A stretch of 64,000 nt of DNA from Bdellovibrionota bacterium (GCA_044235645.1 JBIIHQ010000004.1:185562-249561), one strand, 5' to 3'. Positions 4,621 through 27,798 are shown, counted from the first letter of the stretch. Program-made: numbers and translations. Notes: generated by a model from the letters alone, not told the origin.

Positions 4621-4783
4621 AAATCAAATGTCCGCGTTAGTTAAAAAAAATACTCAGCCGCTGGAGGAGCTTGTTTATTCGCCTATCCTTCAGCAGAAGA
4701 TTTCGACGATCCCTGTATCGGATATTTGATGGGAAAGTTGCTTACAGGAGACTGTTGAGAAGAAATTTGTGGGAGATATAAGC

Positions 4784-10409: not shown

Positions 10410-11313
10410 CGGTGGTTCGATAGCGGGCCTGCTCGAGGAGGCAAGGCGCCAGCTGTGCACGACGAGTGAAACCCCGCAGCTTGATGCTGAAGTGTTATTG
10501 AGTTTTGTGCTGGGGTGCTCGCGACTGCATCTGGTCGTCCATCACGCGACCGAAGTTGAGGTTGATTTCATAGTCCGATTTCAGGAGCTCGTTCACCGTA
10601 GAGTCCGATTTGAGCCTGTTGCTTATCTCACGGGAACCAAAGAGTTCTTCGGACTTTCATTTCGGGTGGCCCCTGATGTGCTTATCCCACGACCTGATAC
10701 CGAGGTGCTCGTTGAGGAAGCGGTACGGCTGTTGGTAGCCATGGATCGCAGAGCACACGCAGAGAAAAATGAACGTGGAGTGACACCGGAGGCTCTCCGG
10801 TTCCTCGATCTTGGAACGGGAAGCGGTTGTATCGCGATTTCGGTACAGCACGAGGTCGGTCGAAGGGGGGTGTCCGCCTCGGGATGTGGTATCGATAGGT
10901 GTCAAAGAGCATTGACGATTGCTGCTGAAAATGCGGAGTGTCTGGGCGTTCCTCTGGAACTTCGACATGGCTCGTGGTTTGAACCGTGCAAACCTTGGGA
11001 GGCGTACGACCTGATTCTTTCAAATCCCCCCTACATCAATAGGGTCGACAAAGAGCTGTCGCCAGAAACAGCGTACGAGCCACAACAAGCCCTTTTCGCC
11101 GACGAATGTGGGCTATCAGATATTCGGAATATTTTAGAGAGGGCACCCGCTTTCTTGAAGCCAGGGGGGAGTATCTTGATCGAGGTTGGAAGGGGGCAGG
11201 CCATTTCTGTGATAGAACGGTTCGCTCCAAGCGGTTTTAGTGGGCGAATCATCGCTGATCTGGCCGGAATTGAGAGAGTGGTAGTGTTTAAACGGTTAAC
11301 GGAGGAAATCTAA
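10396..11313 (+). CDS. prmC: release factor glutamine N5-methyltransferase
   Basis: Class I SAM methyltransferase with an NPPY motif (ILSNPPYIN) and LDLGTGSGCIAI. It is translationally overlapped with prfA. Confidence 0.88.
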   Translation: MAMRSGGSIAGLLEEARRQLCTTSETPQLDAEVLLSFVLGCSRLHLVVHHATEVEVDFIVRFQELVHRRVRFEPVAYLTGTKEFFGLSFRVAPDVLIPRPDTEVLVEEAVRLLVAMDRRAHAEKNERGVTPEALRFLDLGTGSGCIAISVQHEVGRRGVSASGCGIDRCQRALTIAAENAECLGVPLELRHGSWFEPCKPWEAYDLILSNPPYINRVDKELSPETAYEPQQALFADECGLSDIRNILERAPAFLKPGGSILIEVGRGQAISVIERFAPSGFSGRIIADLAGIERVVVFKRLTEEI

Positions 11314-11852
11314 CACGATTGATGAGATCCTTGATGGCACCGTTGACACACTCCTTCGATTCGAAGAAGTGAAGATGGGGGAAGATAAGAGCCCTTTTGA
11401 GTCATGAAAAAAACAAGAGGACTCAATAGCTCGATTGGTACCGTTGTTTCCTCCGCTTTTTCACAGGAAGGGCAGGTAATGATCACGTGTGAGTGCTCTT
11501 CGCACCCAATATGGGTGCAGAGGATATATCCTCCCGAGGGGTGAACCCGGTGAACGACCTGAATCTGTTCGAGGTCGGCGATAACTCGATAGATTGATAC
11601 TTTGCTAAGCGGTTGTTTGCCGCGAGGTAGTTCACCCAGCGCATCAAATAGCTCGGCGATGGTGGCAGGATTTCCCTGCTTTGCGAGAAAAGATATCACC
11701 GACCTCCGGGGGGCGGTAACCCGAAGGCCGTGCCGGGTTAGGATGGCAAGGCACCTATCGATGTAGTGGGCTACCGTCACGGCGGAACGGCAGTGTTCAT
11801 GCGATGTGGGAGAGATTGAGACTGGCTCGGCACCGGAAGGTTTTTTCTGCAT
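11310..11852 (-). CDS. Fur-family metalloregulator (Zur-like by context)
   Basis: Winged helix (GLRVTAPRRSVISFL) followed by HxH/CxxC metal sites (HIGCEEHSHVIITCPSCEKAEE...CQRCH). It is divergent from a His-rich TonB-dependent receptor. Confidence 0.78.
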   Translation of the reverse strand: MQKKPSGAEPVSISPTSHEHCRSAVTVAHYIDRCLAILTRHGLRVTAPRRSVISFLAKQGNPATIAELFDALGELPRGKQPLSKVSIYRVIADLEQIQVVHRVHPSGGYILCTHIGCEEHSHVIITCPSCEKAEETTVPIELLSPLVFFMTQKGSYLPPSSLLRIEGVCQRCHQGSHQSC

Positions 11853-11960: not shown

Positions 11961-14189
11961 ATGGAGTGCGTCATGGTCGTTATTTATTGCAAAAGTATAA
12001 CAAATCAATTCAAGGCCACACAACCGCCCGGAGCAGCCAAGAATGTTTGCTTATTGCTACTCATTGGCAGCTTCCTTGGTATTCATTCCTCGAGCTCTCT
12101 CGCACAGGAGGGAGTAGGGGAATCGGAGAAAAAGGCAGGCGTAGCGGAGCTCCGAGAATCGGGCGACATTCCCACGATCGTCATAAAGGCAGACCCTCTT
12201 TCGCAGAGTCTCCTCGAATTCAGTCGGCCAGCAAGTGTTTTGCACGGAGAGCGGCTTCAAGAGCGTTTGCGCAGTACAGTGGGAGAAACGGTCGATCTGC
12301 AGCCAGGGGTTCGGAGCTCATTTTTTGGTCCAGGTGCAAGCCGTCCTGTGATCAGGGGATTCAGCGGCGAGCGGGTGAGGACGCTGCGCAATGGGGTGTC
12401 GACCGGTGATGTGTCGAGCTTGAGCGACGATCATGTTGTTGTTGCGGACCCGCTACAGGCCGAGCAGATAGAGATCCTACGAGGTCCCGAGACGCTGCTG
12501 TATGGAAGTTCAGCGATTGGTGGTGCGGTGAATGTGAACGATGGATCGATTGCTGAATCCTCTCTTGGAAGGCCTTTTGAAGGAGCCGTTTTGGGGCAAT
12601 TTGGAAATAGTGCAGACAATGAAAAATCAGAGGCGGTAAGGCTGAGGGGGGAGAGCGGCTCAGTCAACTGGTACGGGGGATTTTTTTCCAGAAGAACTAG
12701 CTCTTACGAAATTCCAGGGCTTGCGGAATCAGAGCAGCTGAGAGAGCGGGAGGAGTTGGCCGAGGGTGGTGAGCAGCTCGAAGATGAATCGCACAATGAA
12801 TATGAGGCTGGAGGGATTGTTTCGAACAGCGATTCTCAGACGTATGGCGGCACTATCGGGGCGTCGCATATTTTTGAAGAGGGCTTTGTTGGTCTCGCAC
12901 TGAGTGGATTTGATAGCGCATACGGTGTTCCGGGTCATGGGCATGGGCACGAGGATTCGAAAGATGAAGGGTCTAGTAGTGACGGCGAGGGGCATGGTTC
13001 TGATGATGTCAGAATTGATGCGAAGCAGCTTCGCGCTGACCTTCGAGGCCGATACGATTTCGATGCTTCAATTGAATCAATAAAATTTCGCGTTGGTGCA
13101 ACAGACTACGAACACACTGAATTTGAGGGAGGAGCGGTCGGCAACCTCTTTGAAAAGGACGGAATTGAGGGGCGCCTTGAATTTATTCATCAGCCCATAG
13201 GACCGGTGACGGGAGTCTTTGGAATTCATTCAATTTATGATGACTTCTCGGCCCAGGGAGAGGAGGCATTTATTCCTGCAACGAAGAGTAACACCGAGGC
13301 ATTATTCTTCTTCGAAAAAGTGCAACTAACTGAGCCGTTTTCCCTCCAGGGGGGAGGACGGTTTGAGTCGGTTTCTCATGATCCGATAACTGGCGACCCT
13401 TATAAAAGTAATCCCATGAGCATTTCGGGGGGATTCAGGTGGGAACTTGATACCGAGGGAGTATATTCAATCGGTTCGTCGCTGGATTATGCTGAGAGAG
13501 CGGCATCTCCGATTGAGCTCTATGCCGATGGTATTCATTATGCGCGACGAATCACGGAACGGGGTAACTCTGCTCTGTCAAAAGAGCGATCTACTGGCCT
13601 TGACCTCTCATTTCACAAGACTAAAGGAATGCTTACGGCATCAATAACTCCCTTCTATCAACGATTCGCCAGTTATTTCAACTTGCGGGGAGTGGGCGGG
13701 GCCGAGGAGGAATTTCCCCTATTTGTCTACGATGATACTGGAGCGACTTTTTGGGGGGGCGAGTTTTTGTCATCGCTTCATGTCGATCAGATTGTTCCGA
13801 TGTTCGGACATCGACTGACGCTCGATTTTCAGGGTGATTTAGTCCGCACGCGTGATCGAGACGGGGATAGCTACATTCCCCGAACACCGCCGTTGCGATA
13901 CATCCTTCGTGGTCGTTGGGAGCTTCCCGAAGCTGTTGAGATGATGGTTGAGGCGGTGCGTGTAGAAGCACAACGACGGTTGGCTGCCGGAGAGATCCCT
14001 ACTGATGGGTATTCTATGTTCAATACTGAGGTGAGTTATCGATGGGGGGATGAGCCACGATCATTGAGACTTTTTGTCCGAGGAACCAACCTTACTGATG
14101 AGGAAGCACGGGTGCACTCCTCTTTTCTAAAGGATCTTGCACCGCTGCGTGGACGATCATTGCTCTTCGGATTTCGGGGAATGTTCTAG
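11961..14189 (+). CDS. TonB-dependent outer-membrane receptor with a histidine-rich loop (ZnuD-like by context)
   Basis: Plug-domain motif IEILRGPETLLYGSSAIGGAVNV and a C-terminal beta-barrel ending in F. It contains an internal GHGHGHEDSKDEGSSSDGEGHGSDD stretch. Confidence 0.82.
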   Translation: MECVMVVIYCKSITNQFKATQPPGAAKNVCLLLLIGSFLGIHSSSSLAQEGVGESEKKAGVAELRESGDIPTIVIKADPLSQSLLEFSRPASVLHGERLQERLRSTVGETVDLQPGVRSSFFGPGASRPVIRGFSGERVRTLRNGVSTGDVSSLSDDHVVVADPLQAEQIEILRGPETLLYGSSAIGGAVNVNDGSIAESSLGRPFEGAVLGQFGNSADNEKSEAVRLRGESGSVNWYGGFFSRRTSSYEIPGLAESEQLREREELAEGGEQLEDESHNEYEAGGIVSNSDSQTYGGTIGASHIFEEGFVGLALSGFDSAYGVPGHGHGHEDSKDEGSSSDGEGHGSDDVRIDAKQLRADLRGRYDFDASIESIKFRVGATDYEHTEFEGGAVGNLFEKDGIEGRLEFIHQPIGPVTGVFGIHSIYDDFSAQGEEAFIPATKSNTEALFFFEKVQLTEPFSLQGGGRFESVSHDPITGDPYKSNPMSISGGFRWELDTEGVYSIGSSLDYAERAASPIELYADGIHYARRITERGNSALSKERSTGLDLSFHKTKGMLTASITPFYQRFASYFNLRGVGGAEEEFPLFVYDDTGATFWGGEFLSSLHVDQIVPMFGHRLTLDFQGDLVRTRDRDGDSYIPRTPPLRYILRGRWELPEAVEMMVEAVRVEAQRRLAAGEIPTDGYSMFNTEVSYRWGDEPRSLRLFVRGTNLTDEEARVHSSFLKDLAPLRGRSLLFGFRGMF

Positions 14190-14230
14190 CCTTACAACGC
14201 CTCACTTTGGTTGAAGGACGTAAGGGGTTA

Positions 14231-15622
14231 TCACCCTCTTGATATGAACAAACCGATCGTTTCGACGTGCTCAGTGTGGGGGAACATATCGGCAACCCGG
14301 ACCCTTGAAAGTACAAATCCTCTTTGTGCGAGAATCGCCGCATCAGATGCAAATGTTATCGGGTTACACGAAACGTAAAGGATCCTTTGAGGCGAGAACC
14401 TATCGATCTGGCGGAGAAAAGAGGCAGCTCCACTCCGGGGCGGGTCTAGCAGAATACCGTCGTAATCGAGCTGAGCCCAAGATTCATCCGAAATATCGGC
14501 TTCTAGATTAGCTGAGTAAAATTTCGCATTATCAATCTTGTTGAGAAACGCATTCTGTTCAGCCCGATTGGTCATTACGCTACTGCCCTCGACACCTGTG
14601 ACCGCGCGGGCGTATCTGGCAAGCGGGAGGGAGAAATTTCCGAGCCCACAAAAAAGGTCGAGAAAGGTTTCGCTCTTACACGGCTGCATCCATTCAAGGG
14701 CTGCCGCGACGAGCTTCTTATTGAGTCGACCGTGAGGCTGAATAAAATCGGTTGGGGCAAAACGGAGGGTGAGGTCAAATTGCTCCAACGAGTAGGAAAG
14801 GGGTGCAGGTGGGGTCGGGGTAGTGAGAGGAGAGCAGAGTAGTTGAATGGTTTCTGGCCCCCCTGATTGAACGTAGAGGAAAATCCCTGAGTTTAGCGCA
14901 AACGTGCGAAGTTTATTTTCATCAGTGTCATCAAGACGAGTAAGGTGTCGGAGTATCAGGGCAGCTCCCTCCTCACCTACGGCAAGTTCGAGTTGAGGGA
15001 TTGATGCCCGGACTGACAGAGAACCAAGAAGGGCTCTCAGAGGAGTGATGAGGGTATCAAATGGGGGCGCGAGAATCGCGCACTCGGTGACATCCGCGAT
15101 AAATCTTCCAAAGCGATTTTTGAACCCGATAAACTGAGTGCTCGATTTTGCATCCCAGCGAGCACGTAATCTCGCCTTGCGCCGGTATTGCTCGGTTTCT
15201 CCTTGAAGGGGGGGATCCCATTCGGCTGAATATGCGAGATCGCCCACTAAGTCCCGAACTAATCTCTCCTTGAATTCTATCTGCCAATTCGCCTTGGCGT
15301 GCATAAATGTGCATCCGCTACAGTGAGGGAATGCAGAACACGGACTAGCCTGGCGATAGGGGGAGGATTGAATGAGGCGAAAATCGGGGATGGGAGTGAT
15401 CCCCCTCGTAGTCGAGCTAACCTGGGGCCTGAACACTTGGTCCTCGACAGCAGAGACTCGTTCGGCAATTTGATGAGAGACAGTCGGCTTGGAGCCGCCC
15501 TTAAGAGGTTCGACTATATCCCCAGGGAGCGAGAATGGAACCGCGATGGCCCCTGTGTGAGGCTCACCGATCCCCCAACCGATGCCGTGAACGGAAATGT
15601 CTGTTACTGAAATGCGGCTCAT
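14231..15622 (-). CDS. 23S rRNA (uracil-C5)-methyltransferase, RlmD/RumA family
   Basis: N-terminal TRAM-like region, a 4Fe-4S Cys cluster (CSAFPHCSGC), SAM-binding motifs FLDLFCGLGNFSLPLA and DPPRSG, and the catalytic motif SCNPITFA. Confidence 0.8.
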   Translation of the reverse strand: MSRISVTDISVHGIGWGIGEPHTGAIAVPFSLPGDIVEPLKGGSKPTVSHQIAERVSAVEDQVFRPQVSSTTRGITPIPDFRLIQSSPYRQASPCSAFPHCSGCTFMHAKANWQIEFKERLVRDLVGDLAYSAEWDPPLQGETEQYRRKARLRARWDAKSSTQFIGFKNRFGRFIADVTECAILAPPFDTLITPLRALLGSLSVRASIPQLELAVGEEGAALILRHLTRLDDTDENKLRTFALNSGIFLYVQSGGPETIQLLCSPLTTPTPPAPLSYSLEQFDLTLRFAPTDFIQPHGRLNKKLVAAALEWMQPCKSETFLDLFCGLGNFSLPLARYARAVTGVEGSSVMTNRAEQNAFLNKIDNAKFYSANLEADISDESWAQLDYDGILLDPPRSGAASFLRQIDRFSPQRILYVSCNPITFASDAAILAQRGFVLSRVRVADMFPHTEHVETIGLFISRG

Positions 15623-15694
15623 GACCGTGAGGATAGCCGATTTTTTGGTGAGGTGCGAGATGGTGTGGCTGCAAGTTCGTTGCGCTCATCAGAA

Positions 15695-16789
15695 TCAGGG
15701 TAACATCAGGAGATCGCAGATGTACCGATAGCTTCGATACATGAAAATGAGAGGAAATCCGAGGAATAGAGCGGAGCCGAGCAGCCCGGCGAGAATTTCC
15801 GCTCTCCTCTCGCGCTGACGCTGGGTGATGAGAGCCATCATTTCAGCCTGCTGCATTCGACGGGATATCGCAATCTTTGAGGACTCCCTCCGTTCGAGAT
15901 GATGTATGTGGGTAGATGGACTGTGAGATGCGGAGTGGGAATCGAAGCGAATCGTTTGCTGCTCTTTGAGCATTTTGAGTGCAAGATTAGCCGACTGAAT
16001 TCTCTCCCGAGGACTTTTTGTTAACAGCTTCATTGTGAGATGGGATAGCCACTGCGGAGTGTCGGTCCGAATGGTTGAGGGGGGAGGCACATGCTGCTCC
16101 ACGTGCGCAAGGAGAAGTTTGCCAGGATTTGAGACGTCGAAAGGCAGTCTTCCGCAGATCATTTTGTACAGGAGGCATCCCGCGCTGTAGAGATCTGCGA
16201 GGTGAGTGACCGGATGCCCCAGGATAAGCTCCGGAGCAAGGTATTCAAGAGTGCCCAAAACCGCCCCATGCTGGGTAAGTTGACTCATCTCTGACTGCTG
16301 GTATCGAGCAATTCCGAAGTCAGTTATTTTTACGACATCACCCGGAAGGATAATTATATTGCTCGGTTTAAGATCACGGTGAACGATATCAAGGGAGTGG
16401 ATAGCATCAAGCCCCTCGAATATTTGAACTGCAAGATGAGAGATTCGCTCGATAGGAAGGGGATTTTGTGGGTCGATCAGGACATCCAGAGAATGTCCAT
16501 TAAGATACTCCATAGAAAAAAATATCAGTTCATCATCTTGTCCTACATCAAATGTTCGTGCGATCGAGGGATGATTTATTTTGTTCATCACCTCAACTTC
16601 ACGAAAAAAACGCTTTATTATGTCGTCGCTGTTCGAATGGCCCTTTATGAGAACTTTGAGTGCTACCGAGTTGTTTCCGAGGAGGGTATCGTGGGCGAGA
16701 TAGACAACCCCCATCCCCCCCTCTCCAAGTGGACGGACAACTTGGTACCGATTGTTAACAAGTTCACCAGGCTTTAGTATATTTCTCAT
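15695..16789 (-). CDS. Ser/Thr protein kinase with a C-terminal transmembrane anchor
   Basis: Hanks-type kinase motifs VALKVL, HRDLKPSNII, DFG and GTLEYLAPE, followed by a C-terminal hydrophobic helix LGSALFLGFPLIFMY. Confidence 0.88.
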   Translation of the reverse strand: MRNILKPGELVNNRYQVVRPLGEGGMGVVYLAHDTLLGNNSVALKVLIKGHSNSDDIIKRFFREVEVMNKINHPSIARTFDVGQDDELIFFSMEYLNGHSLDVLIDPQNPLPIERISHLAVQIFEGLDAIHSLDIVHRDLKPSNIIILPGDVVKITDFGIARYQQSEMSQLTQHGAVLGTLEYLAPELILGHPVTHLADLYSAGCLLYKMICGRLPFDVSNPGKLLLAHVEQHVPPPSTIRTDTPQWLSHLTMKLLTKSPRERIQSANLALKMLKEQQTIRFDSHSASHSPSTHIHHLERRESSKIAISRRMQQAEMMALITQRQRERRAEILAGLLGSALFLGFPLIFMYRSYRYICDLLMLP

Positions 16790-16874
16790 CTATGGATCTC
16801 CCGAACGAGGGTGACCTTTGGTCTGGGTCACTTCGCATCGCCCCCCAGCAATGTACCTTTGGTAGCTCCTTCCC

Positions 16875-18020
16875 TCAAACCTTACCCATCAGAATACGCT
16901 CCTTGGTCAAGAGACGTGATAAGTCGCGAGGAGTGGATTGCACTTCTTCCGAAATCGTAAAACCAACAGAAAAGAGTTCTGAGGCGCGAGCTCGAAGAGA
17001 TGAATCTTGCTCATTCTCGCCCACTGAGGGCAGTAGCTCGCGACCAGAGGAGAACAGGTCCGCAATCAGACGGGCAGATTCAGGTCCGAAAATTCGAGAT
17101 AGAAAATAGCCATACACCGCATAGCGGACCGCCAACTCGGAGGGAGATAGGGAGGATTGAGCTGGTTTCAGTGTATTCGCAACAAGCTGATGGGCGTACT
17201 GCTCTGCAGCAGTCCTGAGCAGGATAACATAGCAAAAGGTGAGGGGTGACAACTCGAATGCATCTATCTCGGCTGATGACAGAGGATCTCGAATTTTAAG
17301 AGAACTAAGTTTTTCTCTCGCCAGTGAGAGCCTAAAAAGATTTTTCTCACCTTTTACGATGAGAGGTACTGTTTCTCCAATGAGGGGAATAGATACTCCG
17401 CCTGTTACGGTTATTGCATGGGGAGTTCCCCCTTCTTCGATAGCCCTCATCAGGATATCAAAACCCAAATTGAGGGATTCCCTCGGCTTGGCTCTCGCAT
17501 TGGGCAGGGGGACTACGACTGTATCGAGAGCAAGCACGGGAACATTGTCGTAAGAAATGGCCTGCTCCTCTGAAAGCTGCCGTTCTCGGGTCGAATGAGC
17601 CACTGGAGATATGTTGATTTTTCCTCCCCGAAGAATACCACCGCTAGGGTCGGTGCTACTTGATGAGATAAGAAAGGCGTCTGCTGATGCTTGAAAAGTC
17701 GCAAATTCTCCTCCGGCAAGGGTGGACTCACGGGTGAACAAAAGGGTTGGCTGAGATATCTTAACGGTCAGAGGAGTAGGCCCCCGGCCACCAAAGAGAA
17801 GATTCCCAACCTCTAGTGAGTTGAAGGACGCCGATAAAAGCGATAAATTTCTCCACGATTGGGGTTGAGCAAGATAGGTTATCAATTGCTCGCGACACTT
17901 CGACTCGACGAGCGTGGGCACGCTATAAAAGAACGCGATACACGCTATCGCCCCGATCAAGCAGGTTGTTGCGAAAATACGCAGCACAAGGGATCTCCTC
18001 AGCAGTCTCTCAGCCCTCAC
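16875..18020 (-). CDS. hypothetical membrane-anchored protein (381 aa)
   Basis: Single N-terminal transmembrane helix (IFATTCLIGAIACIAFFYSV) and no recognisable domain. It sits between the MoxR and kinase genes on the same strand. Confidence 0.45.
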   Translation of the reverse strand: MRAERLLRRSLVLRIFATTCLIGAIACIAFFYSVPTLVESKCREQLITYLAQPQSWRNLSLLSASFNSLEVGNLLFGGRGPTPLTVKISQPTLLFTRESTLAGGEFATFQASADAFLISSSSTDPSGGILRGGKINISPVAHSTRERQLSEEQAISYDNVPVLALDTVVVPLPNARAKPRESLNLGFDILMRAIEEGGTPHAITVTGGVSIPLIGETVPLIVKGEKNLFRLSLAREKLSSLKIRDPLSSAEIDAFELSPLTFCYVILLRTAAEQYAHQLVANTLKPAQSSLSPSELAVRYAVYGYFLSRIFGPESARLIADLFSSGRELLPSVGENEQDSSLRARASELFSVGFTISEEVQSTPRDLSRLLTKERILMGKV

Positions 18021-18224
18021 AGAGAGGCTGGCTTAGAGGGATTTGGGCCAATCTGTTGAAGACAGGGTAGGTATCGGCAAGGGAGGTAGCAAAACCTTAG
18101 CCCTATTACTCAGCAAGGCTCAGACTACCGTTCACTCGGGGTGCGGGCGGCAGAACCACATGAAAATGTTCGGTGTTATTGAGGGACATGCAAAGATGCT
18201 GAAATACAAAGACCAAGTAATTCA

Positions 18225-19202
18225 TCATCTTATGACCTGAGATGCTATTAGCTTCTCGAGAATTGGTAGCATTAGTCGCTCAAGAACAGAGCTGGGGTCT
18301 TGAGGTCCAGGATGAAACTTCATGCGATGGAGGAGAACGGGACGGTAGAGAGCCTTGAGGTCATCCTCCGTCACATAGTCTCGATCATGAACGACCGCCC
18401 ACGCCTGAGCCGCAGATTGCAGCATCAGTGCGGCTCGGGTTGAGGCACCGAATTGTATCGCAGGAGATGTTCGCGTTGCCTGCACCATACTAATGATGCA
18501 ATGCCGAATCGCCGGCGAAATATGGACTGTTTGTGTCTCACGGCGAGCGGCTAAAATAGCACTACGCGTGACTATGGGACTGAGAGTCTCAAGTTCATGG
18601 TGGATGCTCACAGCATCCCGAAGGATCTCCTCTTCATAGGATGGGGAAACATAGGGCATCGGTATCTTCATGAGGAATCGATCGAGCTGTACGATTGGGA
18701 GAGGATAGGTTCCAGCGATATCAAGAGGGTTTTGCGTGCCAAGGACAAAAAAGAGGTCATCGATGGGGCGAGTGACATTATCGATAGTCACCTGTTTTTC
18801 TGCCATACACTCGAGGAAGGCAGCTTGTACCTTCGGTCCTGTTCTATTTATCTCATCTGCGAGGACGATGTGAGCAAAGATGGGTCCATGCTGAAATCTA
18901 AAGTTTCCGGATTGGGGCTCAAAAACGGTAACGCCGAGGACATCTCCTGGGAGTAGGTCGGGTGTAAACTGGATTCGGCGGAAGGGAAGACAATCTTGAT
19001 TACTCCCTTCATCCGCTGCAATGAGTCGTCCAAGGGTTTTTGCAAGCGTAGTCTTGCCCGAGCCGGGATAGTCCTCAAGAAGGGCATGACCATCGGCTAA
19101 AATAGCTGCGACGACGAGGGCAATTGTGTCATCACGACCCCGAATCACCTTACTGAGTGAGGTTCGTAATGTTGAGGCGACAGTGAAAGCTTCCTGAACC
19201 AT
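18225..19202 (-). CDS. MoxR-family AAA+ ATPase
   Basis: Walker A YPGSGKTTLAKTLG, Walker B ILADEINR and the GTQNP...LDRF MoxR signature. The start was refined to MVQEAF, which has an AGGAG RBS; the ORF is open to 19289. Confidence 0.88.
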   Translation of the reverse strand: MVQEAFTVASTLRTSLSKVIRGRDDTIALVVAAILADGHALLEDYPGSGKTTLAKTLGRLIAADEGSNQDCLPFRRIQFTPDLLPGDVLGVTVFEPQSGNFRFQHGPIFAHIVLADEINRTGPKVQAAFLECMAEKQVTIDNVTRPIDDLFFVLGTQNPLDIAGTYPLPIVQLDRFLMKIPMPYVSPSYEEEILRDAVSIHHELETLSPIVTRSAILAARRETQTVHISPAIRHCIISMVQATRTSPAIQFGASTRAALMLQSAAQAWAVVHDRDYVTEDDLKALYRPVLLHRMKFHPGPQDPSSVLERLMLPILEKLIASQVIR

Positions 19203-19239
19203 GGATTTGGTGCTCCTATGTTCGAAATTTTGGCATCCA

Positions 19240-21252
19240 TTAACCGTTTTTTCGGTCACTCGACAACGAAGCAGAAAAAACCGCCTCATTTAGATTATTT
19301 ACGAGCGCGATTGATGAATTACCACGCGCCGTTAGCCGCCTCGATACTCCAGATGTGGGAGTATACACTAGTGATATTTCTCTGTCCTGACTACCACTTA
19401 CTTGCACCGAAAAAGGACTCTTCATCCCCTTAGCGAGTTCAAAACCACCCTGCTCAAGGGTGCGAATGAGCCCTGTATCAATACCTGAGACTATGACGGG
19501 TAGGGAGATTCCGGCATTGCGCAGAGCCGGGGGAGAGATCACGAAGATTGCTTCCACAAGCTCTATGAACCTAGCGGAGGAGGAGGAATGTCGAGATGCT
19601 AGCAATGTTAAGATATGGAGCCTGAGTCCGTCGTCGTATTTAGCCCGACAACCTCGAAGGGCGTCCTCAAGATTGGCGATTCCCTGGGAAGACGCCCCAT
19701 TTTTTAACTGATTCTCACCAAGGTAGGCGGTGTAGTATACCTGCGCTATGGAGCGTGTATCACGCTTTTGCTCGTCAGATAGTCGTCGCTCAAAAGGAAC
19801 CTTGGGAATGTAAGACAGTACCTCCCCAAATGTGCTGTATTCGATTAAACTGTCGGTATTCCTCACTGTCAGGTCTTCAATATTTCGAAGCCGTTCTGCA
19901 AGGAGTCGAGCTGCCTTCCGATAAAGCCACCAACTAGTCATCTGAGCTCTCAGAATCGTAGCCCTGTCGCGAATCGATTCGAGAATGCTCTCAGCAACAT
20001 GGACTGATAGACGATTGGCTAGTGCTCTCCAGGACTGCGCTTCTGTGATAATAATGCCAATCTCAAGGTCGTCCTGATTTGTCCCGATTTTGCCGAACCA
20101 TTGAATATATTCATAGGCATCGCTTAACCGGGATAACGCTTCGAGAGGTTTTCCGAGATGAAGATCAAATCGCCCCCGAGCAAGGCCGACAAGAGCTCGG
20201 TGCTCTTCATCGCTTCGGAGCGAGTATTGAGCGACACACGACAGGAACGATGAAATCGAATCATTTGCTTCCGTAACCTTGAGTTGTTCTAGGTAGAGGA
20301 GAGCTAGGTTGAGACTGGGCAGGACATGTTCGCAGCCGTCATGATACGACTTCGCTTTGATCCATGATGCCTCGGCTTTATCGTCCTCGAACAATTCCTC
20401 ATAAACCTCCCCCATGTTATTTACTGGCGTCGCAGGTTGTCCCTGTCTCCCGAGACTTGTCTCAATCGCGGAGGCTTTTTTTAATGCTTCGATTGCTGGC
20501 TCGGGTTGACCGTTCATCGAGAGAAGTATCCCGAGCATATTGAGGGTTCGTGCCGGCTCAGCCCGCATGAGAAGTCCAATGCGCGCCTCTCGAATCGCCT
20601 CCTCGAGTCGACCAAGCTTCATCAAGACCCAGGCTCGAGAACCGGCATAGGAAGGGGTGAGATATCCCCGTGATTGGATCTCATCGAGAACGGCAAGCGA
20701 GCCTGAGTAGTCATCGAGATTAAGTCGAGCCTGAGAGAGAAGGTAAAGAATCTGTGCATGTCGGGATTCAATAGCGGGATTAAGATAAGGGGGACTTCCA
20801 TTTTGCTCTCGGAAGAGACGCTCGGCCGCTTTGATATACTTCATTGCCAGGCGAAAGTGTGACACGTGAGCAAGGTAGTAATAGCTCAGACTCACATAAG
20901 CAGGGTAGTAGGAGGGATCCTTCTTTAGGGCGTTCAGCAGCTTTGTGCGTGCCTCGAGAAGGTGGCTATCGTCGGAGAGAAGGGATTCAGCCTCCTCCGT
21001 TAACTCTTCCGCTGTCTCATCGGACGGTGCTATCTCCGAGGGGTCTTCGACGTTGTTACCCCATGGATCGGATACATCAGGCAGAAGGGGTTGTGCGGAC
21101 GATGATGCAAGTAGGCAGACGGTCAGGCCGAGGGGGATCGCCACTACAGCGAGGGATCGATGGAGAGGCGATGGCTCATTTTTTTTAAGGTAGCCGGTCT
21201 GAGAATTTACCCGACTCAGTGAGAGATGTGGAGAAAATTTAACCGGTTTCAT
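19240..21252 (-). CDS. secreted/periplasmic TPR-repeat protein
   Basis: Signal peptide followed by multiple TPR-like repeats. The start ATG overlaps the stop codon of the upstream transglutaminase gene (ATGA), which suggests translational coupling. Confidence 0.65.
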   Translation of the reverse strand: MKPVKFSPHLSLSRVNSQTGYLKKNEPSPLHRSLAVVAIPLGLTVCLLASSSAQPLLPDVSDPWGNNVEDPSEIAPSDETAEELTEEAESLLSDDSHLLEARTKLLNALKKDPSYYPAYVSLSYYYLAHVSHFRLAMKYIKAAERLFREQNGSPPYLNPAIESRHAQILYLLSQARLNLDDYSGSLAVLDEIQSRGYLTPSYAGSRAWVLMKLGRLEEAIREARIGLLMRAEPARTLNMLGILLSMNGQPEPAIEALKKASAIETSLGRQGQPATPVNNMGEVYEELFEDDKAEASWIKAKSYHDGCEHVLPSLNLALLYLEQLKVTEANDSISSFLSCVAQYSLRSDEEHRALVGLARGRFDLHLGKPLEALSRLSDAYEYIQWFGKIGTNQDDLEIGIIITEAQSWRALANRLSVHVAESILESIRDRATILRAQMTSWWLYRKAARLLAERLRNIEDLTVRNTDSLIEYSTFGEVLSYIPKVPFERRLSDEQKRDTRSIAQVYYTAYLGENQLKNGASSQGIANLEDALRGCRAKYDDGLRLHILTLLASRHSSSSARFIELVEAIFVISPPALRNAGISLPVIVSGIDTGLIRTLEQGGFELAKGMKSPFSVQVSGSQDREISLVYTPTSGVSRRLTARGNSSIALVNNLNEAVFSASLSSDRKNG

Positions 21253-23462
21253 GACAGTTCTCCCCTTAGAAAGGCTACAGCGGATCGGAGAGAGCTGAAA
21301 GATCGCCATCGTCTTTTTTTAAGATGAGCCCGGATGACTTCGAGATCTCGGGTTCGTAAGCGATCGATCTCGGATGAGGATAATCTGTAGAGAGTACCCT
21401 GTGGTCCATAAGTTGTCCGAAGGAGAACGGGACGGAGGAGAAAACAGGGGGATCCGAGGATACAGGTGATGCGTTCCTCATATTCGGAGTATGTTTCTCC
21501 CTCGTGCCGGGGAAGGCCCGCATCACGGAGAATGCTGATGACCGCCCGGAACGAGGCCCGCAACCGACCCTGGCAGGAGCGGTAGCCCATCCAACCGAAA
21601 CGAAGGAAAACTTTCACCATGAGGAGAAATACCAAGGACATTGAGAGTCCCCAAAGCACGATCTGGGGAGAAGGCGGGGACCAGCGTGACCTTGTATCCT
21701 CCATTCCGGGCTCGTTTGAAATATCAGAGGGGGCGAGAATTTCCTCGTCTGGTCCGATCATTCCCATCAGCTCTTCAAGCGCTTTTACGTCAACCGGCGA
21801 GTCGGCGTGACTCTCAACTTGTTCGGGTTGAGTATCAAAGGGAACCCAGCCTGCGCCAGTCACGTACACTTCAGCCCACGAGTGACGATCGCTCATACGA
21901 AGAAGGATATGGCCGTCTTTTGACTGGCTAAGATCCGTCATATATCCCGTGGCGATTCGGGAGGGAATGCCTAGGGAACGGAGGAGGTACACAGTGGCAT
22001 GGGCGAAGTGAACACAATAGCCCCGAAGATCTCCGAAGAGGAAAGGCTCGACCGGATCACCCCCCGTCGGAATCTCATGATTTGGTTGGAGGGTATAAAT
22101 TGCGTTTTTTGATAGCCAATCGGCTATGGCAAGTGCTTGAGAAACTTTCCCAGTAACTCCCGCGGTTATTTTCTTTGCAAATTCGGCGTACCTATAGTCA
22201 GGATGGTAAATTGTGTAATGTAATCTCTCATCATCACTCCATCGCGGATCGCCAACATCGCGACTCGCTAGATTCTCAATAGAAAAAGTGGGAGCGAGTG
22301 AGAGTGCCCGATAAGCCGATTTAAAACGATCCGGGCGCGGATTCTTCAGCGGTACCATGCTCGTTGGGTAATCAACCGCGAAAGGGTTTTCAGCCATCGC
22401 GATGAGAAATATTGATTGTGGGAGCTCTATTCTTCCGTCGAGAGAAGTGTCTTTATCCCGGTGAAAGGGCTGGTGAGGAGAGCCACGGAACACATCTTGG
22501 TCGAATTGGGTAGAAGCCATCACCAAGGCGTTATCGGCGAGCTGAGAAAGAGCAGATTCGCGGAGATAAAGCTTTTTTGTGAAGGGATTTTCCGGATAGT
22601 CCCCATCGAGTCGAACGAGTGCCGCCGGTTGAGCTGTTCCTCCAACAGCAGAGTGAAAATTCAAGGGACTAATACCCTCCTGGTTGGCCTGGCCTACACC
22701 GTTTGCTGCTCGAGATCCCACCGATTTTTTCATTGAATGATACAGGCCTTCGCCAAGGCCCCAAAGGGACAGGATAACAATAATCGGGGGAATCAATCGC
22801 GATAATCTTCGAAGTGGAGTTTGCTTGGCAGCAACTGCACTGACCACGTCGGCGCGTCCCAAATTGAGCGAGAGCGCAGTAATGTAGCTGAGGACACCTC
22901 CGAGACATACCGCTGCGATCACGAGAAAGGTGGAAAGATACTCAAGGTTAAGATCCCAAGCTAAAGATGCAATGAACTTCGGCTTGTCGATGTGAAGATT
23001 CCGGTGGGCTGCGAGAAGGCAGACGACTCCTGAGAGAAGGGCGAACAGCTCAGAGGTGACCGCCCAACGATGACGGAAGACGATGACGGAGGACAGGGTC
23101 AGCGCGAGGAATGTCCACGTAGCAAGGGTGGCGTGCTCTGCAATGATGTAGGGTGTTAGTGGTGAGTCGGCCCCAAATGGAGGGAGACGAAGAAACGTTC
23201 CGAGCACAACATGGAAGAGCAAGAGAGCGATGATGGTTACTGTGGCAATGCCACGAGAGGTAACTCGGCAGGGAGTGATTATTACCGCCGAACCGATACC
23301 CATCGCACCTGCAGTAATAAGGAGGTAGGGATAGCTTGCCAGATCGATGAGATTGTCGACGAGAAAAAGAGTCGCTACAAAAAGGAAAAACCGCGCCAGC
23401 GCCGCTATAAAGAGGGCTCGATGTAAGGATACCGATGTTGGGTTGAGTATCTTGAAGGGCAT
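21249..23462 (-). CDS. transglutaminase-like membrane protein (DUF3488-type N-terminal transmembrane domain plus a transglutaminase core)
   Basis: At least six N-terminal transmembrane helices, then the catalytic triad context GYCVHFAHATVYLLRSLGIPSRIATGY...HSWAEVYVTGAGWVPFD. Confidence 0.8.
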   Translation of the reverse strand: MPFKILNPTSVSLHRALFIAALARFFLFVATLFLVDNLIDLASYPYLLITAGAMGIGSAVIITPCRVTSRGIATVTIIALLLFHVVLGTFLRLPPFGADSPLTPYIIAEHATLATWTFLALTLSSVIVFRHRWAVTSELFALLSGVVCLLAAHRNLHIDKPKFIASLAWDLNLEYLSTFLVIAAVCLGGVLSYITALSLNLGRADVVSAVAAKQTPLRRLSRLIPPIIVILSLWGLGEGLYHSMKKSVGSRAANGVGQANQEGISPLNFHSAVGGTAQPAALVRLDGDYPENPFTKKLYLRESALSQLADNALVMASTQFDQDVFRGSPHQPFHRDKDTSLDGRIELPQSIFLIAMAENPFAVDYPTSMVPLKNPRPDRFKSAYRALSLAPTFSIENLASRDVGDPRWSDDERLHYTIYHPDYRYAEFAKKITAGVTGKVSQALAIADWLSKNAIYTLQPNHEIPTGGDPVEPFLFGDLRGYCVHFAHATVYLLRSLGIPSRIATGYMTDLSQSKDGHILLRMSDRHSWAEVYVTGAGWVPFDTQPEQVESHADSPVDVKALEELMGMIGPDEEILAPSDISNEPGMEDTRSRWSPPSPQIVLWGLSMSLVFLLMVKVFLRFGWMGYRSCQGRLRASFRAVISILRDAGLPRHEGETYSEYEERITCILGSPCFLLRPVLLRTTYGPQGTLYRLSSSEIDRLRTRDLEVIRAHLKKRRWRSFSSLRSAVAFLRGELS

Positions 23463-23486
23463 GGGAGACTTGAAAACGAAACAAGA

Positions 23487-24851
23487 CTAAAGCGATCCAC
23501 AAATGACAATGCGTCCACCCAGCCCACTGGCCCGCACTTTCACCGAATGAAGCATCTCTTGGGGATCGGTTGTATCTTCCATATTTGGATTTGGTTTAAG
23601 AAACCACCATACTCCTAGTTTGCGGGGGAGGGGCGTTCTCTCGGAGCGGGAGGTCAAAGTCGCCGCGGGCTCGGCCAGAGCTTCGGGAGTAATGTACCAC
23701 ACGGGTTCTAGTCCATGCGAACCCAGTAATTCGGAAACAACGCTCAAAAGGTCTGCTCTTGACGAGTCAAGCAGGCGGCGGCTGCTAATGAAAAGGGCAA
23801 CCTGGTAAGTCTCCCCGTTTGAGCTGTCTTCGGTCAGCTCGGAGATAAAGTGTTGAAGATCGGGAATAAGTTGTCGGTCAATCGCGTCCCACGTGCTCTC
23901 GAGGATGAGTCGCTCGATATCGGGAATATTTCGTGCCAAATGACGGCCAGTTGTCATGCCGAGACATCCGCATCGGACCTCCATGCCGAGGGACACCGAA
24001 CGAACCAGGTATCTACAACCTGCTGCAGCAACTCTGTCCTCATTTTTCTCGGCAATGATAAACGCAACAGTCTTTCCCTCAGGCTGACTGTGGTGTTCGG
24101 GGTGTCGGGCAACTAATTCTCCCGTCCTCGCAAATATTTTCCAAACTATTCGTCGAATTCCATCCGAGGGGTCGTATCGTTTGAGGTCGAAAAGTTCACC
24201 CTCTGCGGGTGAGTCGGAGGGAGTAACCTCTCCTGAACTTCGCCGAGTTGAGACAATAGGCAGTTCTTGCTCCAAGGAAGGTGGAGGGTAAATGGTAAGC
24301 CGTAGAGGGAGCGCGAGAGGGCACTCCCACCGGATAGAGGTAAGCCCAAGGATGTCCGAGCAGGTTACCCGAAGTTTGGTTACGGACCATTCGCCCCGAT
24401 GAGGAAGAATGACCGGGAAAGGGGCACTAAAAAGGCCACCCCATGCGGAACTCAATTCAGCAACGGGATGCGATATACGTGCTTCGGGCCAGAGAGGCGT
24501 GATGCGGAGTCTGAAAAAAGGAAGACGGGCTCCTAGTCGGGCCGACGCGATGAGGGATATCGAACGACCCGAAACAAAGTAACCATCTGATGTAGGCAGA
24601 GAATCGAGGGAAACCGTGGCGGTGCGTGAGAATCGTGCTCTTGACAAAAAGCCTCCCACCACACAGTAGGTGAGGAGTAGAGAGGCGCCAAATCCGAGGT
24701 ATCGAGCGACAATATCGAACGCTGCAGCTGGTGGTCCTCCCAAAAAATAGGCGGCTACACTGGCGAGGCCCAAGCCCCGTATCGTGACCGGGCTGCGAAC
24801 GTTCAGGCGGTTGAGGAGAGGAGGTGCATGTGGATGTCGGACAGAGGGCAT
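23487..24851 (-). CDS. DUF58 (vWA-like) protein, the usual MoxR partner
   Basis: Two N-terminal transmembrane helices and the DUF58 core motif GELFDLKRYDPSDGIRRIVWKIFARTGELVARHPE. Confidence 0.72.
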   Translation of the reverse strand: MPSVRHPHAPPLLNRLNVRSPVTIRGLGLASVAAYFLGGPPAAAFDIVARYLGFGASLLLTYCVVGGFLSRARFSRTATVSLDSLPTSDGYFVSGRSISLIASARLGARLPFFRLRITPLWPEARISHPVAELSSAWGGLFSAPFPVILPHRGEWSVTKLRVTCSDILGLTSIRWECPLALPLRLTIYPPPSLEQELPIVSTRRSSGEVTPSDSPAEGELFDLKRYDPSDGIRRIVWKIFARTGELVARHPEHHSQPEGKTVAFIIAEKNEDRVAAAGCRYLVRSVSLGMEVRCGCLGMTTGRHLARNIPDIERLILESTWDAIDRQLIPDLQHFISELTEDSSNGETYQVALFISSRRLLDSSRADLLSVVSELLGSHGLEPVWYITPEALAEPAATLTSRSERTPLPRKLGVWWFLKPNPNMEDTTDPQEMLHSVKVRASGLGGRIVICGSL

Positions 24852-24923: not shown

Positions 24924-26894
24924 GTGGTCAGTGAGGTAGGGTTGTGTTGGATATTACACCTTCATTGTTTTTTTGATCCAATAGGTCATGTGAGACAGTA
25001 TTCCGAAACACCCTTCATTCTCCGATTCACATCTCGCTTGGAACAATGTGTTCTCCTCGAAGGCTCAGACGTTTGGCGAATCTCGTCCATATGGGAGGCA
25101 TTTCGGCAGAGAGCCCGTTCGCAACGAGGTGATTGCATAGGGGGCAGAGGAGCGAAAAGCCGGTGTCACACTCCAGTCTCTATCGAGGGCTTCCGGTGGA
25201 TTGTTCCGCTTGATATTCTCGAGTTAGTCGGCTCAGGTCGAACAGTCGGACATCTTTTTGGACTTGAGCAGCTCCTGCTTGAGCTTGTAACCCTCATGGG
25301 TTCTTGGTCGTGTACTGGGTGCGGGGGGATGGTTACGCGGGATACAGCCTCCCAATTAGCGATGAAATTCGCAATGGCCGAGAAGGGAATCGCAGTTTGC
25401 GTGGTTCCGCGGGCGCCAAATGATCCCTGCCTCGAGGAGCTCAGCTCATTTTTCGGTGTTACTCGAGTTTTAATCGGTGATCGTTTAATGCGGAGTGACG
25501 ATCGAAGGGTAATGGGAAAAGATGGTTCAGTTAGCGAAGGGGTGGTAGTTGCCTCTCTTAGTGTGCCGGTGGATATACACGAGGGGGTGCACTGGCTTCG
25601 GGATGTCCGCACTCGATACCCAGGACATCTTGATATCGGGCTGGTCGCGACTGAGGGCACGGACTTTCGAAGGCTCGGGGCATATGGTGAATCAATCCGT
25701 TGTCTTGAGTGTGGAGTGATGTCTCTCGCTCCCACGCTCCGAGAGCTAAGCCAATCGGTCATCAAAGACGCTCAAACCCGATCATCGATTCAGCGGAATT
25801 TTTTCTTGGGTGGACAATCGCTCAAAGAGCTGCTCGCAGGAAAGCTCCGCACAGTGGCTCAAGCCATTCTTGGTATTGCGCAGGAGACGGGAGTTGAGGG
25901 CATTGACTTGGCTTTTTTGGAGAGGATTGTCAAGTTAAACCGACGAATCGGGGAAACTATGCTCGAGAGTCAGATGAGCTCTCTTTGTCCAGCGGATGTG
26001 GTCGACTTAGCCGTTGCTCGAATAGAGTGCGCCGGATTGTCGGGCCTACAGGTTATCGTTAATGAATTAAGCCGACAGGATGTGAGGGAATGGTGGAGGC
26101 GAATTGAGGAGAATGATTCTGCACAGTCAGAGGTGAGCCTTCTTTTTTTGACCCGTACTGATGAGGTCAGAGATTGTTTGGTTACCGAGTGTTCGATCCA
26201 AGATGCTTTTCGAAATAGTGAAGTAATAGCTCCCGAGAGTCAGTGGGGAGTCCCTGAAGGTTGGACGACGATATGTGCGGGCTCAGTTGTCAAAATTCGC
26301 GTTGATGCTGAATCTCACCGAGATTCGGGCGATTTGTCCAAGCGGGTTGAGGTTCTGGTTCGAGCCAAAGGTGTGAGGGGGGCAGTTATTACGTTGTCTC
26401 CTCGAGAGATCGCGGGCCAGAAAGGTCAGGTGGGTGAAGTCTCAGGTGTGTTTCACCATCTGGCTGAATTGGGAGCTCGACTCCCGATTGCTCGAGCGCA
26501 AGGTATCTCGACTCGGCAGATAAGTGAGGGATTTCAGGGGTATCGAACCCTTCCGCCATTTTTTGGTCTGTCAACCCACGAGTTGAGGAGGATTCCGCTG
26601 GAGCAACTAGTTCTTCGAGTGCCGAGGGTGGGGTATGCTCACGAATTACTTCGAGCCATAATTGCAGCGGGGGGGGGCGGAGTTTCGCTATCGGAGGATG
26701 TATCAACGCATCCCGCCGGTCTTCGAATCATTTACGGATTGTGTGGCGAAATACCTCTTAAGAAGAGGTGTTTGGTCGTCGCTCGGGTCCGCTGGCTCCT
26801 ATGTAAGTCGCAGGAGGATGTTTTAGATGCCATGCTGCAGGAAGAATTACTGAGAGCCGGTTCATGCCCCACCGTTGTGTGGCTGGATCGATGA
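24924..26894 (+). CDS. large hypothetical protein (656 aa) with CxxC pairs and no recognisable domain
   Basis: Long ORF on the same strand as the downstream pssA and separated from it by 13 nt. It contains the Cys pairs CTGCGG and CLEC. The N-terminal ~90 aa are of doubtful coding quality. Confidence 0.45.
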   Translation: MVSEVGLCWILHLHCFFDPIGHVRQYSETPFILRFTSRLEQCVLLEGSDVWRISSIWEAFRQRARSQRGDCIGGRGAKSRCHTPVSIEGFRWIVPLDILELVGSGRTVGHLFGLEQLLLELVTLMGSWSCTGCGGMVTRDTASQLAMKFAMAEKGIAVCVVPRAPNDPCLEELSSFFGVTRVLIGDRLMRSDDRRVMGKDGSVSEGVVVASLSVPVDIHEGVHWLRDVRTRYPGHLDIGLVATEGTDFRRLGAYGESIRCLECGVMSLAPTLRELSQSVIKDAQTRSSIQRNFFLGGQSLKELLAGKLRTVAQAILGIAQETGVEGIDLAFLERIVKLNRRIGETMLESQMSSLCPADVVDLAVARIECAGLSGLQVIVNELSRQDVREWWRRIEENDSAQSEVSLLFLTRTDEVRDCLVTECSIQDAFRNSEVIAPESQWGVPEGWTTICAGSVVKIRVDAESHRDSGDLSKRVEVLVRAKGVRGAVITLSPREIAGQKGQVGEVSGVFHHLAELGARLPIARAQGISTRQISEGFQGYRTLPPFFGLSTHELRRIPLEQLVLRVPRVGYAHELLRAIIAAGGGGVSLSEDVSTHPAGLRIIYGLCGEIPLKKRCLVVARVRWLLCKSQEDVLDAMLQEELLRAGSCPTVVWLDR

Positions 26895-26991
26895 TTGAGA
26901 GGAGTGAGTGGTGAAAAGGGGACCTGTATTTCCGCTTAAATTGAGGTCGATTGTGCCAGAGTTTGCGGAAGTTGAGAGTGGGAGTATCGGA

Positions 26992-27798
26992 ATGAAAAAA
27001 TTATCTCCGCAAGAGAGAGATGCGCGTAGGGAACGGCTGCGGGGGCGGATTGTTCGGAGTCGTTTTTTGGTACCGAATGCGGTGACCGTTGGTAATATGT
27101 TCTGTGGCTTTCTTTCTATTGTCCACAGCTCTTCAGGACGATTCAAGGAGGCGGCGCTGGCGGTGCTCTTCGCCATACTCCTTGATGGGCTTGATGGTCG
27201 GGTTGCGCGCCGGCTTAACGCGACTTCTCCCTTTGGGGTCGAGTTTGATTCTTTCAGTGATCTTGTTTCCTTTGGCTTGGCACCAGGACTGTTGGTTTAC
27301 AACTGGTGCTTCAAAATGCAAGCCGACGAGGTTGGGGTCTTGGTGGCATTCCTTTATGCGGTATGTGCAGCAGGAAGGCTTGCTAGGTTTAATGTAGCAC
27401 CTCCGACATTGCGTGCATTCGTCGGTTTGCCATCACCGGGAGCAGCAGCAGCCATGGCGTCGATGGTATACGCGATACCGGAGCCTGTGATGAGCTCATT
27501 TGCGGTTGGATTAGTCGCGCTTATCACCCTTGTTCTTGGGGTCTTAATGGTTGCTTCGATTCCCTACACGAGCATAAAGATGCTCAAATTGAGTCATTTA
27601 CATCTCCCGGAGGTCGTGGCGATAGCCGCTTTCATCGCGCTTTTGTGGTATAGCGCTCGCATAGGGTTGCTCGTAGTAAGTTTTGGATATGCCTCATCAG
27701 GGGTCGTCCTATGGACTGTGGGGCGTCAACAACGGGAGCGAAGCGATGGTGGCGAATCTACGAGCTGTGTCTGCCCGCCTGAAGAGATTGAGAAATAG
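26992..27798 (+). CDS. pssA: CDP-diacylglycerol--serine O-phosphatidyltransferase (CDP-alcohol phosphatidyltransferase family)
   Basis: Motif DGLDGRVAR...G...EFDSFSD matches D-x2-DG-x2-AR...G-x3-D-x3-D. The start at MKKLSPQ was chosen by alignment; the ORF is open to 26908. Confidence 0.8.
   Translation: MKKLSPQERDARRERLRGRIVRSRFLVPNAVTVGNMFCGFLSIVHSSSGRFKEAALAVLFAILLDGLDGRVARRLNATSPFGVEFDSFSDLVSFGLAPGLLVYNWCFKMQADEVGVLVAFLYAVCAAGRLARFNVAPPTLRAFVGLPSPGAAAAMASMVYAIPEPVMSSFAVGLVALITLVLGVLMVASIPYTSIKMLKLSHLHLPEVVAIAAFIALLWYSARIGLLVVSFGYASSGVVLWTVGRQQRERSDGGESTSCVCPPEEIEK

Follow-up and report, generated by a model that had tools for sequence, protein, structure and literature searches.

A conserved four-gene module encoding DUF58-like, transglutaminase, TPR, and MoxR proteins in Bdellovibrionota, and the lineage-restricted kinase gene pair beside it

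The genes considered here lie in a 64,000-nucleotide (nt) stretch of DNA (hereafter, the window) from an uncultured Bdellovibrionota bacterium (GCA_044235645.1 JBIIHQ010000004.1:185562-249561). Domains were assigned by Pfam and membrane segments by simple hydropathy. Six co-directional, minus-strand open reading frames (ORFs) are present at 15695-24851, where an initial annotation, made from the sequence alone, had placed them. Read in their own direction, they encode a divergent DUF58-like protein of 454 amino acids (aa; 23487-24851), a TgpA-like membrane protein of the transglutaminase/cysteine-protease fold (737 aa; 21249-23462), a tetratricopeptide repeat (TPR) protein (670 aa; 19240-21252), a MoxR-family AAA+ ATPase (325 aa; 18225-19202), a lineage-restricted protein of 381 aa at most (16875-18020), and a tail-anchored Hanks-type Ser/Thr kinase (364 aa; 15695-16789). 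The DUF58-like gene is the first and moxR the last gene of a conserved four-gene module, while the 381-aa protein is paired with the kinase. The initial annotation also described the gaps between all six genes as minimal, a description that fits the first four only. Specifically, the junctions between the DUF58-like, transglutaminase, TPR, and MoxR genes measure 24 nt, -4 nt, and 37 nt, respectively, whereas the gap from MoxR to the 381-aa ORF is 204 nt (237 nt if the probable later start, described below, is used), and a further 85 nt separate that ORF from the kinase gene. The ATGA stop/start overlap reported between the transglutaminase and TPR genes is confirmed (...ctg tcATGAaa ccg, 21252-21249), and an AGGGGAG Shine-Dalgarno sequence precedes it.

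Conservation of the module was examined in 80 Bdellovibrionota loci, one genome per species, in which ORFs were called and compared with nine proteins of the window. The closest species-level genomes are metagenome-assembled genomes labelled Bdellovibrionota, Bdellovibrionales, Oligoflexia, or “Deltaproteobacteria”. Contigs identical or near-identical to the window came from metagenome assemblies only, and a look-up by the kinase sequence returned near-identical contigs alone, making it uninformative on the conservation of synteny. Essentially every species locus of sufficient length keeps the genes in the order DUF58-like, transglutaminase, TPR, MoxR, with junctions that are mostly overlapping or short, and precomputed gene calls at three related loci agree on this order. 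Identities to the window's proteins in related loci run from 25-35% for the DUF58-like protein, 37-47% for the transglutaminase, and 35-49% for the TPR protein to 55-66% for MoxR. The genes that follow MoxR in other loci vary and often lie on the opposite strand, and include those for pirin, IF-3, glutamate racemase, and unknown proteins. The proposal in the initial annotation of a membrane-associated module that is more than a standard MoxR-vWA pair is thus upheld for the four genes whose order is kept in essentially all 80 loci, but membership of the kinase and the 381-aa protein in it is unsupported.

Some variation around the module was also seen. In locus L075 (Deltaproteobacteria bacterium UBA2409; 12100-20004), MoxR does not adjoin the TPR gene but is encoded ~5 kb further downstream, and its displacement therefore indicates an insertion between the two. 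In approximately 14 related loci, a gene for a NarL/GerE-type response regulator, absent from the window, lies directly upstream of, and co-directional with, the DUF58-like gene (for example, L008 5641-6339, L009 7857-8537, and L029 7856-8608, with ~11 more loci), and in those species this protein could regulate the module.

The identity of the first gene, named DUF58 in the initial annotation, depends on the method used. Pfam does not confirm it, since the protein falls below the PF01882 cut-off (12.5 versus 23.4 bits, E 0.085) with the signature motif alone aligned, and DUF58 was matched at E <= 0.01 by just 1 of 30 members of the DUF58-like family. Profile-profile and fold evidence, on the other hand, favors the name. 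The reference set for the profile-profile comparison consisted of annotated DUF58 proteins adjoining MoxR genes in Ralstonia, Rhizobium, and Thermomicrobium, and hhalign aligned the DUF58-like family to it with 97% probability (E 8.9e-11) over 158 columns. The match spans the beta-sandwich and the motif, with KRYDPSDGIRRIVWKIFAR aligning to R-Y-x-P-G/S-D...W-K-x-x-A-R. The architecture of the protein comprises an N-terminal transmembrane (TM) hairpin, a beta-sandwich, the motif FDLKRYDPSDGIRRIVWKIFARTGELVARHPE, and a C-terminal vWA-like domain. Likewise, an AlphaFold model built from an 11-sequence alignment, with a predicted local distance difference test (pLDDT) score of 72.8, contains a TM hairpin, a beta-sandwich, and an alternating beta/alpha domain at the C-terminus. 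This modelled C-terminal domain matches vWA folds, and the vWA domain of BatB is among its top structural matches. The DxSxS motif of a metal ion-dependent adhesion site (MIDAS) was not found after strand beta-1, where the residues are AFIIAEKNED and the family consensus reads VxxFxxAxxxDD. Because of the 97% hhalign match and the vWA-like fold of the model, the first gene is read as a divergent DUF58 gene whose product has a predicted, MIDAS-less vWA-like domain, and the usual kind of partner of MoxR is therefore present in the module.

The second gene encodes the transglutaminase, which matches Transglut_core (E 9e-25; 87.5 bits against a cut-off of 23) at residues 427-543. Hydropathy places six N-terminal segments before this core and one TM segment at 601-619 after it, followed by a C-terminal tail. 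The closest solved structure is 6g49, a protein-glutamine gamma-glutamyltransferase (E 2.5e-14). Full-length homologues number in the hundreds at 40-47% identity, and among 36 homologues C483 and D543 are invariant while H527 is at least 90% conserved; judged from this alignment, the predicted catalytic triad is intact. Neither TgpA_N (PF11992) nor DUF4129 (PF13559) was matched by the window's protein at E <= 0.01, and among its 40%-identical homologues a minority have such matches.

The TPR protein carries a signal-peptide-like segment at residues 33-51, followed by SSSA/QP, and TPR families were matched in 27 of 27 orthologues. It is a probable periplasmic partner, as far as sequence features tell. 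In addition, the stretch around residues 300-470 holds residues that are invariant outside the repeats, within an invariant DGCEH (C307 and H309), C339, an EEH at 349-351 (E349, E350, and H351), WFGKIGT, and RNTDSL. These invariants suggest that the protein is perhaps more than a scaffold and may bear a disulfide or metal site. The MoxR protein encoded next matches AAA_3 (E 2e-52; 176.9 bits against a cut-off of 27) and AAA_lid_2 (E 1e-21; 76.5 bits against a cut-off of 22.7), and its Walker A (PGSGKT) and Walker B (LADEINR) motifs are both intact in translation. The gene starts at an ATG at 19202, with an AGGAG Shine-Dalgarno sequence 10-14 nt upstream. The DUF58-like gene belongs to the same cluster, where it stands upstream in the order and is not adjacent to MoxR.

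The two genes downstream of MoxR have a very different distribution from the module. Gene callers and orthologue alignments place the probable start of the 381-aa ORF at a GTG at 17987, giving a protein of 370 aa (16875-17987), and searching for the exact sequence of the 381-aa ORF gave no match because gene callers take this later start. The initial annotation's description of a domain-less membrane protein is borne out: there is one N-terminal hydrophobic segment (residues 11-29), and nothing was matched in Pfam (even at E 10), NCBIfam, PADLOC, or a PDB profile search. The protein is a near-orphan, with 2 clusters among 5.8e9 proteins and 7 representatives at E <= 0.001 among 1.84e9. In its AlphaFold2 model (pLDDT 75.8; predicted TM-score, pTM, 0.76), a TM helix precedes a beta-rich domain (residues 59-233) and a C-terminal helical bundle (residues 249-379), and a fold search with this model gave no significant match and no vWA. 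The cryptic vWA domain for which the initial annotation had suggested looking in this protein was rejected, the model having no vWA fold; a vWA-like fold was found instead in the DUF58-like protein.

The kinase matches Pkinase at E 4e-54 (184.1 bits), and is tail-anchored since its sole hydrophobic segment is at residues 332-350 of 364, ending 14 residues before the C-terminus. The initial annotation had therefore characterized it correctly as Hanks-type with a C-terminal TM anchor. It has no extracytoplasmic sensor domain. The VALK, HRDLKPSN, DFG, and APE motifs are invariant across six orthologues, and the TM segment is retained. Before the TM segment, 6 of 6 orthologues carry a basic juxtamembrane stretch with strong conservation (residues 300-326; ERRESSKIAISRRMQQAE...QR.R.R), which could be a docking or autoregulatory element.

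Co-occurrence of the kinase and the 381-aa protein with MoxR in relatives, which the initial annotation had proposed as a check, was found in the window's own lineage only (L010, L007, L011, L096, and L094), and neither occurs in the other 78 loci; a tblastn search with the kinase domain over 1.24 Mb of those loci likewise found no matches. Identity to the window is 86% for the 381-aa protein and 95% for the kinase in L010, and 32-36% and 59-63%, respectively, in L007, L011, L096, and L094. Each 381-aa gene has a kinase gene behind it. In L094 the two are 14 nt apart, and remain adjacent even though the genes past the kinase differ (truB, a DHH-family gene, and rbfA). Wherever the upstream sequence is visible (the window, L010, L007, L011, and L096), the pair lies directly after MoxR; the contigs of L094 and L095 end 160-209 nt upstream of the pair, short of any MoxR position. 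The likeliest role of the 381-aa protein is as membrane partner of the kinase, either its regulator or its substrate. Together, the two genes are best read as a separate, lineage-specific unit, probably with its own promoter, and common ancestry, not membership in the module, best accounts for their position beside MoxR. The pair is placed outside the module because it occurs in this lineage only, because the genes after MoxR vary elsewhere, and because a gap of 204-237 nt with its own GCCGATA element separates it from MoxR.

This element belongs to a candidate promoter of the sigma-28 (FliA) type, TAAGGTTT...GCCGATA, at 18072-18099 on the minus strand within the MoxR-to-381-aa spacer. For B. 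bacteriovorus, the published FliA consensus of the attack phase reads TTAAG-N16-CCGATA, and 92 of 140 attack-phase promoters carry it (PMC3627812); the consensus tested here was -10 GCCGATAA and -35 TAAAGTTT or TTAAG. GCCGATA is invariant in the aligned spacers of five lineage members, and with L094 and L095 added, 6 of 6 sequences have it 88-91 nt ahead of the 381-aa start codon. The -35-like element before it reads TAAGGTTT, TAACGTTT, TAGCGTTT, or TACGGTTT. The window holds 14 copies of GCCGATA (7.2 expected), and the spacer copy is the sole intergenic one. The kinase pair is probably transcribed from its own sigma-28-like candidate promoter. CCGATA is not enriched upstream of the DUF58-like gene, where it is present in 5 of 69 loci against ~6.6 expected, and on this count the idea that the four-gene module has a sigma-28 signal of its own was rejected. 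The sole other match to TAAG-N14-19-CCGATA in the window, at 4716-4744 on the minus strand, is also intergenic and lies ~96 nt upstream of a 120-aa ORF without a Pfam match (4258-4620, minus strand), which follows a gene for an RlpA-like DPBB_1 protein (4784-5203).

Taken as a whole, these observations suggest that the four genes constitute an operon and represent a Bdellovibrionota-wide variant of the MoxR-DUF58-TgpA system, with a permuted gene order and an added TPR subunit, and that the kinase pair is a separate unit. We give this reading a probability of roughly 0.6. PA2875 and PA2874 of P. aeruginosa, encoded beside tgpA, are presumably a MoxR and a DUF58 protein, respectively. The PA2875-PA2874-tgpA (PA2873) genes are co-transcribed, and TgpA itself, an essential membrane-bound protein, is periplasmic and shows activity in vitro (PMC3507681). 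The MoxR-first order that the initial annotation called canonical holds there, given that assignment of PA2875, as well as in annotated genomes with the orders MoxR-DUF58-transglutaminase (the Ralstonia solanacearum megaplasmid), MoxR-DUF58-DUF4129 (Thermomicrobium), and MoxR-DUF58 (Rhizobium). Like the P. aeruginosa and Ralstonia triads, the module tightly packs genes for MoxR, DUF58, and a multi-pass Transglut_core protein with Cys-His-Asp. It differs from them in its order (DUF58-like, transglutaminase, TPR, MoxR), in a dedicated TPR protein of 630-690 aa whose position is conserved in related loci, and in a DUF58 member that is too divergent for Pfam. The Ralstonia transglutaminase resembles that of the window in the catalytic core only (39% over 99 residues). 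Compared with pairs of a MoxR-family ATPase and a vWA partner (NorQ-NorD and RavA-ViaA), the window's vWA-like domain is without DxSxS and forms one polypeptide with a TM hairpin and beta-sandwich (the DUF58 architecture), and a membrane transglutaminase takes the place of a metalloenzyme as the presumed client.

On this basis, a working model can be outlined, in which we infer the topology, the contact between MoxR and the vWA-like domain, and the envelope substrate. By analogy with P. aeruginosa TgpA, the Cys-His-Asp domain of the TgpA-like protein would face the periplasm, where the secreted TPR protein may serve as a scaffold or substrate adaptor for the transglutaminase. The DUF58-like protein, anchored by its TM hairpin, would present its MIDAS-less vWA-like domain in the cytoplasm for engagement by the MoxR AAA+ ring. 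Through ATP-driven remodelling, MoxR might bring about the assembly, activation, or resetting of the membrane transglutaminase complex, and the outward-facing domain of the transglutaminase would act with the TPR protein to modify envelope proteins. The pair of 381-aa and kinase genes is envisaged as having been inserted downstream of MoxR in one lineage.

Several points weigh against this reading. To our knowledge, no experiment in any organism shows MoxR acting on DUF58 or TgpA, and the count of six N-terminal segments, by itself, leaves the periplasmic side of the transglutaminase domain unsettled. The distance between the -35-like and -10 elements in the spacer is 2-3 nt longer than the published sigma-28 consensus, and the sigma-28 assignment is therefore a lead, not a demonstration. 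No terminator-like site was detected in the MoxR-to-381-aa gap; sigma-70 promoter and terminator consensus scans did no better than shuffled sequence and therefore define no operon boundaries, and read-through from the module into the kinase pair is possible. In Bifidobacterium, moreover, the PFNA cluster (pkb2-fn3-aaa-atp-duf58-tgm) encodes a Ser/Thr kinase, Pkb2, that phosphorylates the MoxR ATPase (PMC8430577; PMC12067865), and thus joins a Hanks kinase to MoxR, DUF58, and a membrane transglutaminase much as the window does. One rival reading is that all six genes cooperate in this lineage, with the kinase, aided by the 381-aa protein, phosphorylating MoxR or the DUF58-like protein, so that the transglutaminase machine would be under phospho-control as a convergent analogue of PFNA. 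The absence of a terminator-like site would suit such an arrangement, as would the position of the pair directly after MoxR in each member with visible upstream sequence despite rearrangements downstream, since a place so fixed through gene gain and loss past the kinase could reflect selection. Hanks kinases were absent from the 1.24 Mb around the module in other species, and the adjacency is therefore not a by-product of kinase abundance. Nevertheless, ~96% of the module-carrying species lack the pair, a single ancestral insertion accounts for every occurrence, and the 204-237 nt spacer has its own conserved sigma-28-like element, which is absent upstream of the module. The PFNA kinase has a sensory region and is encoded by the first gene, whereas that of the window is tail-anchored, lacks a sensor domain, is encoded downstream past the spacer, and has a linkage limited to one small lineage. 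Nor does PFNA include a TPR protein or a 381-aa orphan, and no FN3 match was found in the window's cluster. We consider cooperation of all six genes unlikely; a functional coupling of the kinase to MoxR, argued by analogy, is possible but unsupported. A narrower proposal, which we regard as somewhat less probable again, is that a sigma-28-controlled (motile/attack-phase) kinase and its orphan partner were recruited beside MoxR and brought the phylum-wide, trans-envelope transglutaminase machine under phospho-control. If true, this would be convergent with PFNA, and would link an essential-type, functionally unexplained envelope system to life-cycle signalling.

The TgpA-type assignment of the four genes also has its competitors. 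The Bat (Bacteroides aerotolerance) clusters of Bacteroidota and spirochaetes are described as encoding vWA and TPR membrane proteins next to MoxR that are thought to form an envelope complex (PMC3557215), and the presence of MoxR, DUF58-like, and TPR proteins in one cluster recalls them. A Bat-type MoxR-vWA-TPR envelope complex for oxidative or other stress is improbable, however, as neither the cluster nor its flanks include a separate BatA/BatB-type vWA gene with MIDAS, the sole vWA-like domain has no MIDAS, and MoxR is last in the order, not first. In addition, the largest and best-conserved component, the transglutaminase, is absent from the description of the Leptospira Bat proteins (PMC3557215). 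Less likely still is an anti-phage or conflict system, built on a MoxR-vWA-type NTPase module, on a PD-T4-6-like defence kinase, or on both. The kinase does score strongly against the PADLOC PD-T4-6 and Mad6 kinase models (best E 9e-85), and MoxR-vWA ternary systems are tied to biological conflict in work cited in PMC12067865. The PADLOC matches span the generic kinase domain only, though, and on this ground the defence reading was rejected; the other five proteins match nothing there, and the bpMoxR model scores MoxR at 22 bits, under its cut-off of 27. The neighbourhood, moreover, is a stable, core-genome one across species (pssA, rlmD, prfA, groESL, and nuo), not a variable island. It is the TgpA-type reading, with the kinase pair as a separate unit, that we therefore prefer.

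Both flanks of the cluster consist of core chromosome. Beyond the DUF58-like gene lie pssA, a UvrD-like helicase gene, and the nuo operon. The nearest neighbours on that side are divergent and are not claimed as part of the module: a 656-aa protein without a Pfam match (24924-26894, plus strand) and the phosphatidylserine synthase PssA (26908-27798, plus strand; TIGR00473, E 2e-40). The 656-aa protein belongs, as a divergent member, to a ~700-aa family likewise without a Pfam match (family hidden Markov model match, E 3.6e-12). In 42 related loci a gene of this family lies upstream of the module in divergent orientation, as a rule beside pssA. The latter gene is found near the module in 48 of 65 loci, upstream and on the opposite strand, and this conserved neighbourhood may point to a link between the module and phospholipid synthesis. 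On the kinase side are rlmD, a TonB-dependent receptor gene, fur, prmC, prfA, and groESL. Of these, rlmD (14231-15622, minus strand) is a seventh co-directional gene, 72 nt past the kinase, that the initial annotation omitted. Between rlmD and prmC, the window's species carries the TonB-dependent receptor gene (11961-14189, plus strand) and fur (11310-11852, minus strand), neither of which is at that position in L007 or L096, indicating a recent insertion downstream of the kinase. Scans of the window for tRNAs and Rfam families found no matches.

For the biology of this phylum, the kinase pair is the less important part, being a lineage-specific neighbour, and its sigma-28-like signal offers a testable hint of motile-phase regulation. 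The DUF58-like gene illustrates that the vWA-like partner of a MoxR can hide in a DUF58 protein missed by Pfam. More broadly, the MoxR-DUF58-TgpA triad is widespread, and the module supplies a four-component parts list, together with a large set of orthologues available for covariation analysis or complex modelling. New in the Bdellovibrionota version are its fixed, permuted gene order and the strongly conserved, added TPR subunit, which is probably periplasmic.

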